This document shows positions 4,024 through 58,329 of a stretch of DNA of 64,000 bases, piece after piece; within the stretch, counting starts at the first letter, position 1, and each line of letters begins with the position of its first letter. The translations under genes and the position numbers were made by a program. The notes below the pieces were generated by a model, which made no database searches, was not told where the DNA came from, and worked only from the letters and a program-made list of their open reading frames with translations. The DNA comes from Candidatus Levyibacteriota bacterium (lineage in GTDB: Bacteria; Patescibacteriota; Microgenomatia; Levybacterales; UBA12049), in NCBI GenBank assembly GCA_003173895.1, contig PJMG01000012.1, positions 35,448-99,447 of the forward strand. The letters are read 5' to 3'.

Positions 4024-4091
4024 TGTCATCCTGAACTTGTTTCAGGATCTTAAAATTATTAAGAAGATTCTGAAATAAATTCAGCATGACA
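4024..4091. repeat. Palindromic dispersed repeat (TGTCAT...ATGACA family) in divergent intergenic region
   Basis: TGTCATCCTGAAC-ttgtt-TCAGGATC ... GAAGATTCTGAA-ataaa-TTCAGCATGACA. Two hairpins bounded by TGTCAT/ATGACA inverted termini. Related copies at 25784-25849, 45384-45451, 51312-51379 and fragments elsewhere. Confidence 0.6.
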
Positions 4092-8096: not shown

Positions 8097-8152
8097 GGGA
8101 GATTTGTATTATTTACATTTTCAATCTCCCCAGATAAAAGGGAGATTTTTTG
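8097..8152 (+). promoter_or_regulatory. Putative attenuator: alternative hairpins (antiterminator A:B vs terminator B:C + U-tract) directly upstream of ORF 8157
   Basis: GGGAGAT (8097-8103) ... ATCTCCC (8124-8130) ... GGGAGAT (8140-8146) followed by TTTTTTGT. The middle segment can pair with either flank. The B:C hairpin plus T-run has intrinsic-terminator geometry on the + strand, yet no + strand gene lies upstream. Confidence 0.4.
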
Positions 8153-8156
8153 TATT

Positions 8157-8481: not shown

Positions 8482-8540
8482 GAGACTGGTTTTTATTTTA
8501 AAATTCCAGTCTCCCAAATAAAAAGGGAGATTTTTTGTAT
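8482..8540 (+). promoter_or_regulatory. Second copy of terminator/antiterminator-like leader element
   Basis: GAGACTGG-(16 nt)-CCAGTCTCCC-aaataaaaa-GGGAGA-TTTTTTGTAT, then ACCCCAGATAAAAAT, which repeats the CCCCAGATAAAAG segment of the first element. Overlapping alternative stems. Upstream of ORF 8663. Confidence 0.35.
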
Positions 8541-24077: not shown

Positions 24078-25787
24078 TTATTTTTTACCTTGATAGTGTT
24101 CTAATTTATAGATTTCTATAAAGCTAACATTCTTTTTATCTACTATTTCTGCTTGACCAAAACCTGCTATTTCAAAAAGTGGATTACCTAAAGGATAGCA
24201 TGGAATACTCTCACAAATGACTATTAATTGATTAGTAACTGAAGTTCTTTGAGGATCTAAATAGGGAGGTTGTATAGTTACCGGAGGATGTCCCCAAATA
24301 GTTAAGAAATAACGATAGGCAAAATCAGAATTTCCACCTGTAATTAGAGCTAAATTAAAGGGTTTATTATCTACTTCATTTAAAACTACTTTAGATATTA
24401 ATCTCGCTTGATTAACTTGTTCATTAGGAAGAATTCTTATAGGACTATAATAAATACTAGTAAATATTATCGCTCCTAAAATTAAAATTCCACCAATTTT
24501 ACTTGATATATTTATTACTTGATAGAGCTTGTTATTCTGAGCGTTAGCGAAGAATCTCGTCCTTTTCCAATTATTTTTCCATAAAAATCCTATAAAATTA
24601 CTAATTACTAAAATTACTACAGGATATAAAAATTCAAAATAATAATCATAAATATTTTTTTTATAAAATCCAAAAATTAAGAGTGGTGGAATTAACCAGG
24701 CAAAGATTAAAAAATATTTTAGAAACTTATTTTTATTTGTCATTCTGAGCGTTAGCGAAGAATCTCGTCCCTTTTGTTTTAATAAGCTAACAAATTCAAT
24801 TAAAAAGTAGATTAAACTTCCTAAGGACACGATGGAAATTAAAATAGCAAAAATATCTAGCTTACCAAATGTTGAAACTGCTGTATTGGAAGGTGGGTAA
24901 TAGAATAAAGTTTTCCCAAAAACAGTTATAAATACATCCCAAGTTTTCATCAGGATATTCCCACTTCCTCCTACGTCAGGAGAATGAAAAATAAAATTAA
25001 TAATATTTAATGTGTTTACGAATTTATGTCTTACTTCAAATGCTAAATAAGGAGAAAACCCTATTAAAAATCCTAAAATGAAAAAGAAAAAAATCTTAAT
25101 GTCATCCTGAACTTGTTTCAGGATTTTCTTCATCATCCTAGCTGGTCCAGAATTAATGCTAAAAATAAACTCTGCTCCAATAACATATAAAATTATCGAC
25201 ACTCCTAAAAATGTTTCTATGTAGTGAAGTTGAAGTAAAATTCCATAGCAGATACCGGATAAAATAACCCATTTATTTTTCCCCTCAAACAAACTTCTAT
25301 ATAAAAACCATAAACATAATATGGTAAAAAATGGCATAGGATTTGGATTCCATGAAGATTTAGAATAAATTACTACGAGTGGTGAAATAGCATAAATAAA
25401 TGCTGCTATAAATCCTGTAGTTTTATTAAAAATATTTTTACCAAGATAATAAACTAGATAAACAGTTATTATTCCAAGTAATGCAATCATTACAGCTGGC
25501 CCCACAGGATTATAATTAAATAACCATAAAAATGGTGCCATGAAGTAGTAATAAATAGGACCTAAGAAAAAACCGCCAACAGAACTGGTTGGTCCCAGTA
25601 AAGTTAGATGTCCATGTAAAATATTATAAACAGTTAAGACATCTCTTCCTTCATCTCCTAAAAAAGTCATGTAATCACCAATCCTATAAAATCTTAGGAA
25701 TGCAGCTAACAGTAAAATTAAAAATAAAAGAAAATTTGTTTTAGTAAGATATTTTTTTAAAGCACTTATCATAATATCTAATGCCAT
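24078..25787 (-). CDS. GT-C fold glycosyltransferase, PMT_2 / ArnT-like (GT39/GT83 family)
   Basis: About 12 TM helices. DE motif in first extracytoplasmic loop (TFLGDEGRD). 569 aa. Contains three in-frame copies of dispersed-repeat fragments (24531-24568, 24739-24781, 25101-25124). Confidence 0.75.
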   Translation of the reverse strand: MALDIMISALKKYLTKTNFLLFLILLLAAFLRFYRIGDYMTFLGDEGRDVLTVYNILHGHLTLLGPTSSVGGFFLGPIYYYFMAPFLWLFNYNPVGPAVMIALLGIITVYLVYYLGKNIFNKTTGFIAAFIYAISPLVVIYSKSSWNPNPMPFFTILCLWFLYRSLFEGKNKWVILSGICYGILLQLHYIETFLGVSIILYVIGAEFIFSINSGPARMMKKILKQVQDDIKIFFFFILGFLIGFSPYLAFEVRHKFVNTLNIINFIFHSPDVGGSGNILMKTWDVFITVFGKTLFYYPPSNTAVSTFGKLDIFAILISIVSLGSLIYFLIEFVSLLKQKGRDSSLTLRMTNKNKFLKYFLIFAWLIPPLLIFGFYKKNIYDYYFEFLYPVVILVISNFIGFLWKNNWKRTRFFANAQNNKLYQVINISSKIGGILILGAIIFTSIYYSPIRILPNEQVNQARLISKVVLNEVDNKPFNLALITGGNSDFAYRYFLTIWGHPPVTIQPPYLDPQRTSVTNQLIVICESIPCYPLGNPLFEIAGFGQAEIVDKKNVSFIEIYKLEHYQGKK

Positions 25788-25849
25788 CCTGAACTTATTT
25801 CAGGATCTTCTTAATTCAGAGAGGATGCTGAAATAAATTCAGCATGACA
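25784..25849. repeat. Palindromic dispersed repeat (TGTCAT...ATGACA family)
   Basis: CATCCTGAAC-ttatt-TCAGGATC ... GGATGCTGAA-ataaa-TTCAGCATGACA. Near-identical architecture to 4024-4091. Confidence 0.6.
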
Positions 25850-35404: not shown

Positions 35405-36286
35405 TTATATATTATAATTTAATTGCCTTTTTATTTCTTCCAATCCTTCTCTAAATGTCTTTAAATTTACGCCCAATTTTTTTATTTTATTGTTATTAAG
35501 CGATGAGTTATATGGTTCTTTTGGCTTATCAATTAAAAATTCTGCTCGTGTTGTAGAAGCTATTAAACTTTTATCCAATCCGGAAACGTTGGCTATTTCT
35601 AAAGCCGCATCATAAATACTTAGTGAAGTATCACCCACTACATGATAAATACCGTTAGCGCTATTTTCGATCAAGATATCAACTGCTGTTGCTATGTCAT
35701 CTATAAAAGTAGGAGTAATAATTCTATCTTTTAAAACTGTTAATTGTTCTTTATTTTTAAGTTTTTGTATAAATAGCCTGACAAAATCATTTTTCTCATA
35801 ATTAGCTCTGTATGGATAAGCTACGCGAGTAATAGTCCATAGAGTTTTTATATTTTTTACTCTTAATTCTCCTTCATATTTAGTCTGAGCATACCAGTTA
35901 AGTGGATTTTCGCGATCTCTCTCTGTATAACCTCCCTCGGGCGTATTTTCTCCATCGAAAACTAAATCTGTAGAAAAATAAATAAGCGGAATATTATTCT
36001 CTTCACAAACTTGAGCCACATTTTCTGTCCCTAAAACATTTATTTTCCACGCTTCACTTTTTTCACCCAAGTTTCTATCCAATTCTGCCTGTTTTACATT
36101 AGTATATGCTGCTAAATGTAAAACAAAATCTGGTCTTAAATCCTGAAGAGATTTTTGAACACTTTCTTTACTCGTTATATCTACGCCTGTACTTCTACTA
36201 ATATTTTCAAAAGTATATTTATCTTTAAGAAGTTCTAAAATTCTGGAACCAATTAATCCATTTAAACCAGTAGCTAAAATTTTCAT
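35405..36286 (-). CDS. rfbD: dTDP-4-dehydrorhamnose reductase
   Basis: N-terminal Rossmann GLNGLIGS; Y-x3-K (YAQTKYEGE). 293 aa. 4-nt overlap with rfbB. Confidence 0.8.
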   Translation of the reverse strand: MKILATGLNGLIGSRILELLKDKYTFENISRSTGVDITSKESVQKSLQDLRPDFVLHLAAYTNVKQAELDRNLGEKSEAWKINVLGTENVAQVCEENNIPLIYFSTDLVFDGENTPEGGYTERDRENPLNWYAQTKYEGELRVKNIKTLWTITRVAYPYRANYEKNDFVRLFIQKLKNKEQLTVLKDRIITPTFIDDIATAVDILIENSANGIYHVVGDTSLSIYDAALEIANVSGLDKSLIASTTRAEFLIDKPKEPYNSSLNNNKIKKLGVNLKTFREGLEEIKRQLNYNI

Positions 36287-38011: not shown

Positions 38012-38019
38012 ATTTCAAT

Positions 38020-38044
38020 GTCATCCTGAACTCGATTCAGAATC
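38020..38044. terminator. Hairpin (TGTCAT repeat-family fragment) between convergent rfbC and kinase genes
   Basis: GTCATCCTGAActcgaTTCAGAATC followed by TTTTAATATT; possible bidirectional terminator. Confidence 0.4.
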
Positions 38045-38052
38045 TTTTAATA

Positions 38053-41889: not shown

Positions 41890-41930
41890 ATTTATTAATC
41901 AAATCCTATAGATATTTATCTTTTTAATAA

Positions 41931-42095
41931 AAAGTGAGCAAATATATATTTTAAAATGCATTGAAAGTTTGCTCTATGATAATTTTTAAATTTAATTTAA
42001 GTTTGGTAGCAAACTTTCACGAGCAAGAATGATATTTAATATTAATTTACAAAGCAATGTTTTCGAGCGTCTTTTAAAATATATTTTGCGAACTC
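41931..42095. repeat. Long (~165 bp) imperfect-palindrome dispersed repeat, copy 1 (upstream of tsaB)
   Basis: agtgagcaaatatatattttaaaatGCATTGAAAGTTTGCTctatgataattt...aagtttggtAGCAAACTTTCacgagcaagaatgatatt...gcgtcttttaaaatatattttgcgaactc. Internal GAAAGTTTGCT/AGCAAACTTTC and terminal tatattttaaaa/ttttaaaatata inverted segments. Confidence 0.6.
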
Positions 42096-42131
42096 AAAAC
42101 AAAATCAATCTTATTACAAACCTCTGCTAAC

Positions 42132-42740: not shown

Positions 42741-42800
42741 GTTTAATCAAAAGCGAGCAGAAGTATATTTTAAAACGCATTGAAAGTTTGCTCTATGATA
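42741..42800. repeat. Partial copy (left half) of the ~165 bp repeat, upstream of tsaC / overlapping tsaE 3' end
   Basis: aaagcgagcagaagtatattttaaaacGCATTGAAAGTTTGCTctatgataatttc, near-identical to the left arm of the copies at 41931 and 50763. Confidence 0.45.
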
Positions 42801-43300
42801 ATTTCTCTTTTATTCTCATCTAAAATCTCAAATTTTATTTCCCATCTTTTCTCAGGTAAAAATTTACCTAACTTTTCCGGCCATTCAATGGCTACAATAT
42901 TATTCTTTTCTTTTAAAATATCTAATAATCCTGTAGATTCTAAATCATTTTCATTTTCTAAACGATATAAATCCGCATGATAAAAATTACTAAATTCTTC
43001 AATCTTAACCTTATTTACATTTTTCACTTTTAACTTTTCACTTTTAACTTTATAGCTTCTTACTATTATAAATGTTGGGGAGATAATTCTGTGCTTTATA
43101 CCTAAACCTTTAGCTAACCCTTTAACAAATTGCGTTTTACCTGCTCCTAAATTACCATATAAACAAATGACATCTCCTATTTCTAATTTTTTTGCAAAGT
43201 CAAATCCTAACTTCTCAGTTTCTTCACTACTATTAGTTACCAAAATTTTTTTAAATTTATTTTCCCTTTTTTCCATAACTGAAATCCTAATATACCACAT
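42770..43300 (-). CDS. tsaE: tRNA t6A biosynthesis ATPase TsaE
   Basis: Walker A GNLGAGKTQFVKG; SPTFIIV; YHADLYRL motif. Contains a K/V-rich ~20-aa insertion encoded by a 14-nt tandem duplication. The annotated start overlaps the upstream gene by 64 nt; the true start may be a downstream non-ATG codon. Confidence 0.7.
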   Translation of the reverse strand: MWYIRISVMEKRENKFKKILVTNSSEETEKLGFDFAKKLEIGDVICLYGNLGAGKTQFVKGLAKGLGIKHRIISPTFIIVRSYKVKSEKLKVKNVNKVKIEEFSNFYHADLYRLENENDLESTGLLDILKEKNNIVAIEWPEKLGKFLPEKRWEIKFEILDENKREIIIEQTFNAF

Positions 43301-45383: not shown

Positions 45384-45451
45384 TGTCATCCTGAGCAACG
45401 CGAAGGATCTCATTCTATAGATAGAGATTCTTCACTTCGTTCAGAATGACA
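45384..45451. repeat. Palindromic dispersed repeat (TGTCATCCTGAGC...GTTCAGAATGACA)
   Basis: 68-bp element with perfect 13-bp terminal inverted repeats and central cgaaggatctcattctatagatagagattcttcac palindrome. Inverted-orientation twin at 51312-51379. Confidence 0.6.
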
Positions 45452-50696: not shown

Positions 50697-50762
50697 GTAC
50701 CTATTTTCTCACAGAAAAACTTAAATTCCAAATTCTACAGAATAAATTGATTATTAATTACT

Positions 50763-50928
50763 AAAAGAGAGCAGATGTGTATTTTAAACAGCATTGAAAG
50801 TTTGCTTTATAATAATTTGAAATCTAATTTAACTTTGGTAGCGAACTTTCAAGAGCGAGAATGATATTGAATATTAATTCACAAAGCAATGTTTTCTAGC
50901 GTCTTTTAAAATATACTCTGCGAGCTAT
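50763..50928. repeat. Long imperfect-palindrome dispersed repeat, copy 3 (upstream of prfB)
   Basis: aaagagagcagatgtgtattttaaacaGCATTGAAAGTTTGCTttataataattt...AGCGAACTTTCaagagcgagaatgatatt...gcgtcttttaaaatatactctgcgagctat; ~90% identical to copy 1. Confidence 0.6.
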
Positions 50929-50965
50929 AGTAAAAGAGGTTATAAAAGTCCATTTGTTTCAAAAT

Positions 50966-51311: not shown

Positions 51312-51379
51312 TGTCATTCTGAACATAGTGAAGAATCTCTATCTATAGAATTAGATCCTTCACGTTGCTCAGTATGACA
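51312..51379. repeat. Palindromic dispersed repeat (inverse-orientation twin of 45384-45451)
   Basis: TGTCATTCTGAACatagtgaagaatctctatctatagaattagatccttcacGTTGCTCAGTATGACA is approximately the reverse complement of the 45384 copy. Confidence 0.6.
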
Positions 51380-52243: not shown

Positions 52244-52275
52244 GTATTAATATTAACTATTTATATAAAACAAAA

Positions 52276-52423
52276 CAAGATTTAATTGAAAATTTGCTGT
52301 TTAGTAATTTCGTAATTTAATTAAAGTTTGGTATCAAACTTTCAAGAGCGAGAATGATATTCTATATTAATTTATAAAACAATTTTTACGAACGTCTTTT
52401 AAAATATACTCTGCGAGCTATAG
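52276..52423. repeat. Long imperfect-palindrome dispersed repeat, copy 4 (upstream of uppP, left terminus shortened)
   Basis: attgaaaatttgctgtttagtaattt...aagtttggtATCAAACTTTCaagagcgagaatgatatt...gaacgtcttttaaaatatactctgcgagctatag. Confidence 0.55.
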
Positions 52424-52455
52424 ACAAGCCATAAAAACATACTTATACTAAGTTT

Positions 52456-56557: not shown

Positions 56558-57418
56558 TTACAATACTTTTTTAATTAATTTTTCTGTGTTAGTTAACGTT
56601 TGAGTTAATGCAAAATGCATTAAAGTTTGAGTTATTGGTAGAGCCTTTTGCATGTTTACAAATCCACTATCTAGAAGCATTAAATGATATTCATCATTAT
56701 TCCTAATTATTTCTAGATTCCCTTCTCCTAAAAGATCTGGCTCTAATTCATAATCTTTTAAGAGTGTATTACACAATTTTTTAAAAGCATTAAATTCTTT
56801 AATTAAAATTTTTCTTTGATCATCATTTAATTTTTTCTTTACTCTTGATGGTTTTACTACATGTAAAAATGGTTGTAACACTAATGTTCTTTCAGTTGTA
56901 ATTCCTTCCTCTTGTAATTTAGCCCAGATAATTTCTTCGGGTTTTGGCAGTAAATTATTTAATTCTTTGTATTTCTTTAATTCTTTCTTTAAAATATCTA
57001 AGTGTTTTTTCCTTTCTTTATAATAATCCTCTGTAGATGGATCGCCAAAATCTACTACCAATGATAATTTATATCCTATTTTTAAAACCCACTTTTTTAT
57101 ATCCTCACCAACAAATGTTTTAAAAGTTATTAATTTACTATTAAACCCTTTTTTAAAATGTTTTACTTCAAAAAACTCTCCACTTTCTCCAAATATTTCT
57201 TTAAAAACTAGATTTGAAGCTTTATTATTTTTTAGATAATTTCTAAAGTAAATCAGAAAACCAATTGCTTCTTCCATTTCTGTATGAGTCCAGATAAATT
57301 TATCTTTTATTTTTCCGCCTATTCTATATAGAAATGATGTGGATTCTCTATATAGAGCTTTAACAATATTTTTAGTTTTCATTGTCTTAATTTTACCTGT
57401 ATTTGATAAAATATGCAC
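56558..57418 (-). CDS. K/N-rich hypothetical protein (286 aa)
   Basis: ORF only; convergent with 55746 and divergent/overlapping with 57403. Confidence 0.3.
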   Translation of the reverse strand: MHILSNTGKIKTMKTKNIVKALYRESTSFLYRIGGKIKDKFIWTHTEMEEAIGFLIYFRNYLKNNKASNLVFKEIFGESGEFFEVKHFKKGFNSKLITFKTFVGEDIKKWVLKIGYKLSLVVDFGDPSTEDYYKERKKHLDILKKELKKYKELNNLLPKPEEIIWAKLQEEGITTERTLVLQPFLHVVKPSRVKKKLNDDQRKILIKEFNAFKKLCNTLLKDYELEPDLLGEGNLEIIRNNDEYHLMLLDSGFVNMQKALPITQTLMHFALTQTLTNTEKLIKKVL

Positions 57419-58329
57419 ATATGAATCTTTCTAAAGCTCAAAATAACTCTATGCGAAAAATTCTTCAAATTTTTGAGCCAATACTTAATAGAATTATTGA
57501 TTCTAAACTTTCTCCCAATGAAATTTCACTTTTAGGACTTAATAAATCAATTCATGGTTTAAATAAAATTTTTAATTCTAAAAATATATCGGTTAAATTT
57601 TATGGTTTTTATTTATTCTCTTTTGGTGAATTCCTAGATCTCTTAGATGGCATCCGCGCCCGATCTCAGGGTAAAGCAAGAAGCGTAAAGGGTAAAGAAA
57701 AAACACATCAAAAACTTTACATTTCACCCTTAACTCTTAACACTTTAAACGGTCAGCTTCTCGATGGTTTCTGTGACCGTGTTAAAGAATTTTATTATTT
57801 TTATAAAAAAACAAATTTTAATAAGCAATTTGGAATTTCTTGTATTTTACCTAGCATTGCCCGTGCTGCTAATGAACTTTTAAATCAAACAGTTTCTGAA
57901 AAAGATGAAAAAGGTGGAAGTATGTTAGATAGAACCAGATTAATTTTTATTTCATTATTTTTTTACATTTTAGGTTTTACCAAAAAATCTCTACAAATAG
58001 ATCAAATAATTTATGAAAGAAATTTAGCCACTTTTAGTAATAGAATTAATAAAATAAATTTTGAAAAATTAGAAAAATATCCACCAGCTGGCGGAGAAAA
58101 GGATTTAAATGAATTTCAAAAAAAAGCACTAATTCGTTTGAAATTTTATTTAAAACTATATAAAGAAGAACAGTTAGTTTGTCATTCTGAACAAGGCGAA
58201 GAATTTCAATTTATAAAAAAATTAGATCAATTAAAAATTTTAAAATCCGTAAATTTAAAAAATGAAGAAAAATTATTTAGCTTATTTAATAATTTTTTTC
58301 CGATAAATAAATGCTATCATTCCCAATGA
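57403..58329 (+). CDS. K/N-rich hypothetical protein (308 aa) with CDP-alcohol phosphatidyltransferase-like D-G-x2-A-R ... G-x3-D-x3-D segment
   Basis: DLLDGIRARSQG ... GQLLDGFCD fits the D-G-x2-A-R-x(n)-G-x3-D-x3-D motif order, but with a 29-aa rather than 8-aa spacer and weak TM content. Contains an in-frame repeat fragment at 58181-58207. Confidence 0.3.
   Translation: MIKYAHMNLSKAQNNSMRKILQIFEPILNRIIDSKLSPNEISLLGLNKSIHGLNKIFNSKNISVKFYGFYLFSFGEFLDLLDGIRARSQGKARSVKGKEKTHQKLYISPLTLNTLNGQLLDGFCDRVKEFYYFYKKTNFNKQFGISCILPSIARAANELLNQTVSEKDEKGGSMLDRTRLIFISLFFYILGFTKKSLQIDQIIYERNLATFSNRINKINFEKLEKYPPAGGEKDLNEFQKKALIRLKFYLKLYKEEQLVCHSEQGEEFQFIKKLDQLKILKSVNLKNEEKLFSLFNNFFPINKCYHSQ

Follow-up and report, generated by a model that had tools for sequence, protein, structure and literature searches.

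Palindromic repeats residing within protein-coding genes, whether as Rickettsia palindromic elements (RPEs) or as intragenic repetitive extragenic palindromic (REP) units, are already established. The RPEs were reportedly described by Ogata et al. in 2000 and 2002 as selfish palindromic repeats lying in frame within protein-coding genes. The CGTC-tagged REPs were surveyed in five phyla, Patescibacteria not included, by Di Nocera, De Gregorio & Rocco (2013, BMC Genomics 14:522; PMC3733652). In that survey, the units carry a CGTC or TGTC (also CCTC) tag, a stem of 8-9 bp that starts with AT and closes on 4-5 nt of loop, and a tail of 3 nt with the consensus CCA; head-to-head dimers predominate, most units stand in the spacers of unidirectional or convergent genes, in-frame units within genes are on record, and no dedicated transposase is known for the class, which occurs in several phyla and takes in Neisseria dRS3 and Rickettsia RPE-4 and RPE-6 (PMC3733652). 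SsnA, a single-domain GIY-YIG protein of 94 aa whose gene is flanked by NTS, binds and cuts the Neisseria NTS (CGTCATTCCCGCGMAVGCGGGAATCYRG), which is the extended dRS3, and does so only when that DNA is single-stranded; such pairs of nuclease and repeat are widespread, NTS clusters around surface and virulence genes in Neisseria, and Ssn affects transformation (PMC11893778, Nat Commun 2025, 16:2388). Here, we examine a 64-kb window (the whole stretch of DNA that was analysed; contig PJMG01000012.1 of a Candidatus Levyibacteriota bacterium, positions 35,448 to 99,447), in which three short hairpin units are translated within the gene of one GT-C membrane glycosyltransferase. The repeats of this window are, from their sequences, best explained as units of the CGTC/TGTC-tagged REP class, and we hold it likely, with good confidence, that they are passenger hairpins which survive in genes only where reading frame and protein fold tolerate them. 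What is new is the Patescibacteria-like host and the membrane glycosyltransferase as the place of residence.

A profile built from the copies and run over the window finds 13 repeat units in the 64 kb, the remainder of which lies at noise level. Each unit measures about 28 nt and is made up of an unpaired TGTC tag, a short loop within a stem of 8-9 positions that starts with AT, and a tail of 3 nt, CTC or CTT. There are two sub-types, with loops of 3-5 nt between them: the A-type reads TGTC-ATYCTGAGC-GNA-GCGAAGRAT-CTC, with nine stem positions including a tandem G.A and a 3-nt loop, and the B-type reads TGTC-ATCCTGAA-CTTGT-TTCAGGAT-CTT, with an 8-bp stem, all paired, and a 5-nt loop. The tag is TGTC in 11 of the 13 units (TGTT and TGCC in the remaining two), and the core GTCATYCTGARC is matched 12 times in the window against 0.4 expected. 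The tag, the stem of 8-9 positions starting with AT and the head-to-head dimers are all shared with the CGTC-tagged REPs, as is the mostly intergenic placement of the family (58 of 59 units in other low-GC loci are not deep in long open reading frames, ORFs); the short loop and the 3-nt tail correspond in part. The differences lie in the stem (ATYCTGAGC with its tandem G.A, or ATCCTGAA, against the published description), in the tail, which is not CCA, in the loop of the A-type (GNA, 3 nt, or GTTA, 4 nt, in the glycosyltransferase copies, whereas the 5 nt of the B-type are within the published 4-5 nt) and in the Patescibacteria-like host genome. The text of the supplements to the 2013 survey holds no matching sequence and hence provides no numbered CGTC family (PMC3733652).

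The gene and its three units are as follows.

24078..25787, minus strand: ORF of the GT-C protein (PMT_2/GT39-like membrane glycosyltransferase), 569 aa, uninterrupted.
24530..24563, plus strand: site 1, A-type singlet; tag TGTT, stem ATTCTGAGC/GCGAAGAAT, loop GTTA, tail CTC plus a shared flank.
24735..24773, plus strand: site 2, 39-nt in-frame insertion carrying the A-type unit 24738-24766; translates as KGRDSSLTLRMTN, aa 339-351.
25100..25127, plus strand: site 3, B-type singlet; tag TGTC, 8-bp stem ATCCTGAA/TTCAGGAT, loop CTTGT; translates as KILKQVQDD, aa 221-229.

An earlier, sequence-only reading of this DNA had reported the copies at 24531 and 24739 and the hairpin at 25101-25124 inside a continuous 569-aa ORF, together with an in-frame copy at 58181 in ORF 57403-58329 (VCHSEQGEEF), and had called them nucleotide-level repeats rather than protein-domain duplications. 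Sequences, coordinates and peptides were all recovered, the copy at 58181 reading LVCHSEQGEEF. GTTATTCTGAGCGTTAGCGAAGAATCTC at 24531-24558 and GTCATTCTGAGCGTTAGCGAAGAATCTC at 24739-24766 are the sole window matches within 3 mismatches, and GTCATCCTGAACTTGTTTCAGGAT at 25101-25124 is identical over 24/24 positions to 4025-4048 and near to 25783 and 38020; for each of these, shuffled sequence leads one to expect none. Sites 1 and 2 are spaced 208 nt apart (1 mod 3), which puts the two A-type copies into different frames of translation, KRTRFFANAQNNK and KGRDSSLTLRMTNK; site 1 gives TRFFANAQN at aa 410-418. Both copies carry a private GTTA loop (one extra nucleotide) and a CGTCC flank, and are closest to each other. 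Because the frames differ, identical copies stand in non-coding DNA and the segments are absent from orthologues, duplication at the protein level is excluded. Two of the three coding-strand frames of a unit are open, both of which are used by the two A-type copies, and this is about what chance gives for an AT-rich 27-mer. The suggestion that the element is selected to insert without breaking frames is thus not needed, because survivorship under purifying selection suffices, and nothing about the segments resembles the mini-intein-like behaviour to which they had been likened: an intein or mini-intein was rejected for segments of 9-13 aa whose reading frames differ and whose DNA also occurs, identically, in non-coding copies.

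Comparison with homologues separates the three sites. In alignments of 20 and 119 homologous sequences, the columns that hold GRDSSLTLRMTN (aa 340-351) and WKRTRFFANAQNNKLYQ (aa 407-423) are of low occupancy, and neither peptide is present in any other sequence. When codons are aligned against P0002, the nearest relative (66% identity, locus L001), a 13-codon gap stands opposite site 2, an exact 39-nt insertion. Site 2 is therefore a demonstrated insertion, which the nearest homologue and the 119 all lack. Loop lengths, counted as residues between conserved anchors, are as follows.

Site 1: window 65, median of 119 homologues 45, P0002 60, P0003 66.
Site 2: window 37, median of 119 homologues 25, P0002 24, P0003 39.
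Site 3: window 37, median of 119 homologues 29, P0002 37, P0003 41.

At site 1, insertion is only partly indicated by these sequences, the loop being already expanded in a small clade. The site 2 loop of homologue P0006 (...SFAKASAGRQS) and the N-terminus of P0012 are unusual peptides that resemble other dispersed repeats in translation, and the N-terminus of P0101, MGFRNKFGMT, likewise resembles a repeat translation, so that its start is probably mis-called. The first two suggest that the site 2 loop and the N-terminus may be recurrent landing sites for repeats in GT-C homologues.

The gene that houses the units is intact and not decaying. Its protein matches Pfam PMT_2 (E=1.4e-15) and has 2948 homologues, mostly of 520-530 aa, with source names of Patescibacteria, Microgenomates and Levybacteria; it aligns with homologues from end to end and keeps the consensus residue at 135 of 147 columns conserved at >=95%. 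An AlphaFold model from a 21-sequence alignment (pLDDT 72, pTM 0.78) matches the structures of AglB, ArnT, ALG9/12, PMT and AftB. Hydropathy and model place the units in loops between transmembrane helices, site 3 in 217-231, site 2 in 331-354 and site 1 in 403-423, so that both the alignment and the structural mapping that the sequence-only reading had proposed put the inserts in loops. Each of the three loops has 5-6 Lys/Arg residues, and they are probably cytoplasmic, because of the positive-inside rule and of a C-terminal domain that we take, by likeness to ArnT and PMT enzymes, to lie outside the membrane. The catalytic site presumably lies, from GT-C architecture, in the first loop near the invariant DE pair (D45-E46), and by this analogy the unit-bearing loops would be away from it. 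The annotated ATG falls in the tag of the doublet at 25783 (the reverse complement of the tag TGCCAT, 25783-25787) and is probably mis-called, because homologues align from M6; the true start is probably this M6, the ATG at 25772.

The operon comprises GT2/GtrA, GT-C and an epimerase-like protein. The GT2/GtrA gene upstream is syntenic in loci L001 and L002, and its spacer to GT-C measures 66 nt here, filled by a doublet, versus 45 nt in L001 and 4 nt in L002. The L001 spacer (627-671) contains CATGTTAAATTTATT, a 13/15 match to a doublet arm which 29 of 2000 shuffles equal or better, and which may be a decayed remnant of the GT2-GT-C doublet.

In this gene-dense genome, about 93% coding, the 13 units of the window form four inverted doublets, all intergenic (4025/4090, 25783/25848, 45385/45450 and 51313/51378), and five singlets (24531, 24739, 25101, 38020 and 58181). 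The tags point outward in all four doublets, that is, head-to-head; the spacers that hold them are largely or wholly doublet sequence, and the doublets fold into hairpins of about 70 nt at -29 to -33 kcal/mol (z -6.6 to -7.8). Outside the three sites above, the units are the following.

4024..4091, no strand: B-type head-to-head doublet between divergent genes; -29.2 kcal/mol, z=-7.8.
25782..25849, no strand: B-type head-to-head doublet filling the 66-nt GT2/GtrA-GT-C spacer; -32.5 kcal/mol, z=-6.6.
38019..38048, plus strand: B-type singlet with a degenerate stem, in a 41-nt spacer between convergent genes.
45384..45451, no strand: A-type head-to-head doublet between co-directional genes; -33.1 kcal/mol, z=-6.6.
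51312..51379, no strand: A-type head-to-head doublet filling a 72-nt spacer between co-directional genes; -33.2 kcal/mol, z=-6.8.
58180..58208, plus strand: A-type singlet in ORF 57403..58329(+); peptide CHSEQGEEF.

Among the singlets, the B-type hairpin at 25101 is stable both as RNA and as DNA (z=-3.9). In all five singlets the tagged strand is the plus strand, which with n=5 falls short of significance but is of interest because an ssDNA (single-stranded DNA) nuclease of the Ssn kind is strand-specific. Searches of the window and of 18 loci with GC-rich doublets against Rfam, at gathering and at permissive thresholds, found no family that covers the repeats.

The same family is spread over many other genomes. 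A scan of species-representative genomes with the A-type pattern gave at least 120 matches, and those listed include Saccharibacteria, Curtissbacteria, Omnitrophota, Chloroflexota, Acidobacteriota, Nitrospirota, Bacteroidota (with Pedobacter isolates), Verrucomicrobiota, Planctomycetota, Cyanobacteria, Bacillota, Proteobacteria and others; a B-type scan of metagenomes gave matches too, those listed being a lower bound. Of 184 units from other genomes, collected with a pattern that left the base before GTC free, 137 have TGTC as their tag and 31 have CGTC, and 136 have a GNA loop. Their stem pairs covary: pair 3 is T-A in 87, C-G in 86, G-C in 4 and non-Watson-Crick in 7, and the inner pair 8 is G-C in 150 and A-T in 26. 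Other loci hold 39 doublets with tags outside and spacers of <=94 nt. Units deep inside ORFs of >=200 codons are found in other low-GC loci for 1 of 59 A-type and 8 of 112 B-type units. Pfam-confirmed genes with in-frame units encode a type III methylase and a class I tRNA synthetase, either of which has two units, and CoaBC, SecA, TatD, a HEAT-repeat protein and a solute-binding protein (loci L169:2-2038, L139:273-2339, L149, L213, L220, L221 and L116:3926-5209); two of them read ...ILKQVQDD..., the frame of site 3. As a candidate autonomous parent element, inverted units 2-4 kb apart were considered and rejected: they enclose GroES/GroEL or GatB and no transposases. Plasmid and phage collections gave 4 and 1 weak matches, with uninformative annotation. 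A full-text literature search with the repeat sequence returned chance primer matches only, and the literature on palindromic repeats or transposable elements of the miniature inverted-repeat kind (MITEs) in Patescibacteria, the candidate phyla radiation, yielded nothing relevant.

In these other genomes the family has the character of an Ssn-associated repeat. Among loci totalling 1.5 Mb, picked solely for carrying the unit, we found 11 small GIY-YIG ORFs, 9 of them no more than 225 nt from a unit. Five single-domain ORFs among them have units on both sides (93-96 aa where full length; Pfam GIY-YIG E 5e-15 to 5e-17).

L003:7098-7376, Saccharibacteria: unit-flanked GIY-YIG ORF.
L095:3377-3664, Chloroflexota: unit-flanked GIY-YIG ORF.
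L144:3365-3652: unit-flanked GIY-YIG ORF.
L225:276-548: unit-flanked GIY-YIG ORF.
L226:351-623: unit-flanked GIY-YIG ORF.

The likeness to NTS and SsnA thus extends to a 28-nt oriented hairpin with an HGTC-AT 5' part and, in the other genomes only, to the arrangement unit-GIY-YIG-unit; the window differs in having no Ssn gene and in leaving the published pattern for Ssn-related motifs (SRM; PMC11893778) unmatched, and cleavage of its units would follow only by analogy. That pattern, HGTCWYN(0-2)YYVSBRHN(0-5)WNVSBRGN(0-2)RNCYNB, has no match in the window and none in representative A- or B-type units, while the NTS control matches. Because the pattern misses units of a family that flanks Ssn-like genes, the published SRM search probably undercounts such repeats. 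By analogy with the flanked genes, we infer an Ssn partner in the window's own genome.

Other classes of repeat fit in part. The RPEs share with the units their toleration at non-critical positions, the possibility of several per gene and absence from orthologues, as seen here in the exact 39-nt insertion at site 2, which none of the 119 homologues has, and in the location of all three sites in inter-helix loops. They differ in size, RPE-1 having 100-150 bp against single half units of about 28 nt here, and the target here is a polytopic membrane protein. The REPIN/RAYT system likewise has inverted doublets of short hairpins, singlets that are probably remnants, and repeats on either side of an enzyme gene present in one copy; it differs in having a GTAG tag and a Y1 (HUH) transposase versus the TGTC tag and GIY-YIG nuclease, and no RAYT was seen here. 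A MITE derived from an insertion sequence was rejected, as the enclosed genes are no transposases and there is no consistent target-site duplication, and a DNA uptake sequence was ruled out since the repeat sequence spans phyla.

We propose that dispersed hairpin repeats are copied at the DNA level into a gene-dense genome, by a route that might involve a single-stranded DNA hairpin and a cognate small GIY-YIG nuclease of Ssn type encoded elsewhere in the genome. Head-to-head pairs of units form the hairpins of about 70 nt that fill intergenic spacers, and some units have ended inside genes. The intragenic copies that persist keep the frame, have no stop in the frame used and stand at a tolerant position; in GT-C these positions are the three short K/R-rich loops between transmembrane helices, where the units would just be translated as 9-13 extra or replaced loop residues and are presumably neutral.

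Several observations weigh against this proposal. Neither a transposase nor an Ssn/GIY-YIG gene was found in the window, the latter sought by motif scan, by Pfam on 20 small ORFs and by tblastn with three Ssn-like proteins, and the SRM pattern matches none of its units. No consistent target-site duplication was seen at unit flanks in the window. Single A-type units have no significant stability in nearest-neighbour energy models, and their pairing rests on covariation. Simple insertion fails to explain the units at 25101 and 58181, neither of which changes length relative to homologues. Finally, a stretch of 1318 nt in and next to the GT-C gene contains four of the nine REP sites (P~0.004), and the intragenic fraction, 4/13 in the window versus 1/59 in low-GC loci elsewhere, is high (Fisher P=0.003); together, these hint at something beyond random neutral scatter.

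That clustering supports an alternative compatible with passenger repeats, namely that the units are kept for an action in cis, on DNA or RNA, near envelope-glycosylation genes, as Ssn cleavage or recombination-control sites or as RNA hairpins. The composition of the operon, the link of the family to Ssn-like genes, and the clustering of NTS and effect of Ssn on transformation in Neisseria (PMC11893778) all favour it. However, no Ssn gene was seen in the window, only one locus was examined, local duplication could give the clustering, as the private GTTA loop and CGTCC flank shared by the A-type copies would allow, and the nearest relatives keep the operon without units. We regard action in cis as unlikely, with a modest chance of being right. 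The units at 25101 and 58181 raise a different question, that of whether they arose without insertion, by short-tract gene conversion or by drift in situ to the consensus, as replacements of equal length. Site 3 is as long as in P0002, where KRIYDQIKSD stands opposite KKILKQVQDD with residual similarity, and the 58181 unit lies in the divergent C-terminal part of a real ORF with five conserved homologues, with no evident change of length. The window pattern is also similar to that of DNA uptake sequences and uptake signal sequences, which occur as singlets in genes and as inverted pairs between genes. Against this, the site 3 loop exceeds the family median by 8 aa in the window and in P0002 and is longer in P0003 also, so an old insertion is possible; P0002 DNA has no significant similarity to the unit, and the idea that P0002 holds a decayed ancestral copy at site 3 was rejected for the same lack of significance. 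Conservation of the sequence across phyla speaks against a species-specific uptake tag, and alignments are weak in these divergent regions. An origin without insertion is, in our judgement, rather improbable for these two units. As to the sequence-only reading, its word "insertions" is borne out for site 2 and in part for site 1; 25101 and 58181 show no net change in length.

Selection at the protein level would be expected if the repeat-encoded peptides had been co-opted as functional cytoplasmic loops of GT-C, and the K/R-rich residues that the inserts bring do fit the positive-inside rule. However, one DNA sequence gives unrelated peptides in two frames, the peptides occur in none of the 119 homologues, and identical units are non-coding elsewhere in the window, which leaves co-option very improbable. 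We give scarcely any credence to the remaining alternative, that GT-C is a decaying pseudogene or that the inserts are assembly artefacts. Three foreign segments within one gene and differences at 12 of 147 highly conserved columns might be cited for it, but the 12 substitutions are mostly conservative, the motif of the catalytic loop is kept, the alignment is full-length and the GT-C fold is confident; artefacts would ignore codon phase, whereas the ORF is uninterrupted, the frame preserved and site 2 exactly 39 nt long. The proposal that these genes are decaying is thus set aside, because the GT-C ORF is intact and conserved, and the homologues of ORF 57403-58329 are conserved as well. A reading that joins several of these elements to the passenger repeats is conceivable and, to us, doubtful: Ssn-type repeats would have colonised coding sequence unusually often (4/13 versus about 2-7% elsewhere), concentrated at the envelope-glycosylation operon as strand-specific sites of single-stranded DNA cleavage or recombination control that tune the exchange of surface-glycan genes in DNA uptake, with some copies (25101, 58181) spread by conversion.

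Two further repeats were seen in the window. A second, unrelated intergenic repeat of about 175 nt occurs at 41923-42110, 50756-50940 and 52262-52440 (77-83% identity), with a partial copy at 42742-42804. Long inverted repeats lie within it, Rfam offers no match, and the fold of one copy, at -28.5 kcal/mol, has a z of only -1.5; a MITE and a structured RNA are both candidate identities. A 44-nt segment in two copies (8112-8155 and 8497-8540, 82% identity) consists of a TCTCCC...GGGAGA hairpin followed by a T-run, and looks like a terminator unrelated to the REP family.

The passenger-repeat reading makes of a striking pattern an instance of a documented process, the survival of REP-type hairpins in frame within genes, and adds a Patescibacteria-like genome and a polytopic membrane enzyme to the settings of that process. 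It also makes the tolerated places concrete, as short, probably cytoplasmic, inter-helix loops. For annotation, the peptides RFFA..AQND, DSSL..LRMT, CHSE..EE and KILKQVQDD mark the repeat and not protein homology, and start codons supplied by the ATGACA end of a unit are a signature of the repeat. The more interesting by-product is the broad spread of the exact repeat together with its association with Ssn-like genes despite the missing SRM match: for research on Ssn nucleases, this is a repeat that occurs across many phyla, flanks Ssn-like GIY-YIG genes and is missed by the SRM pattern.

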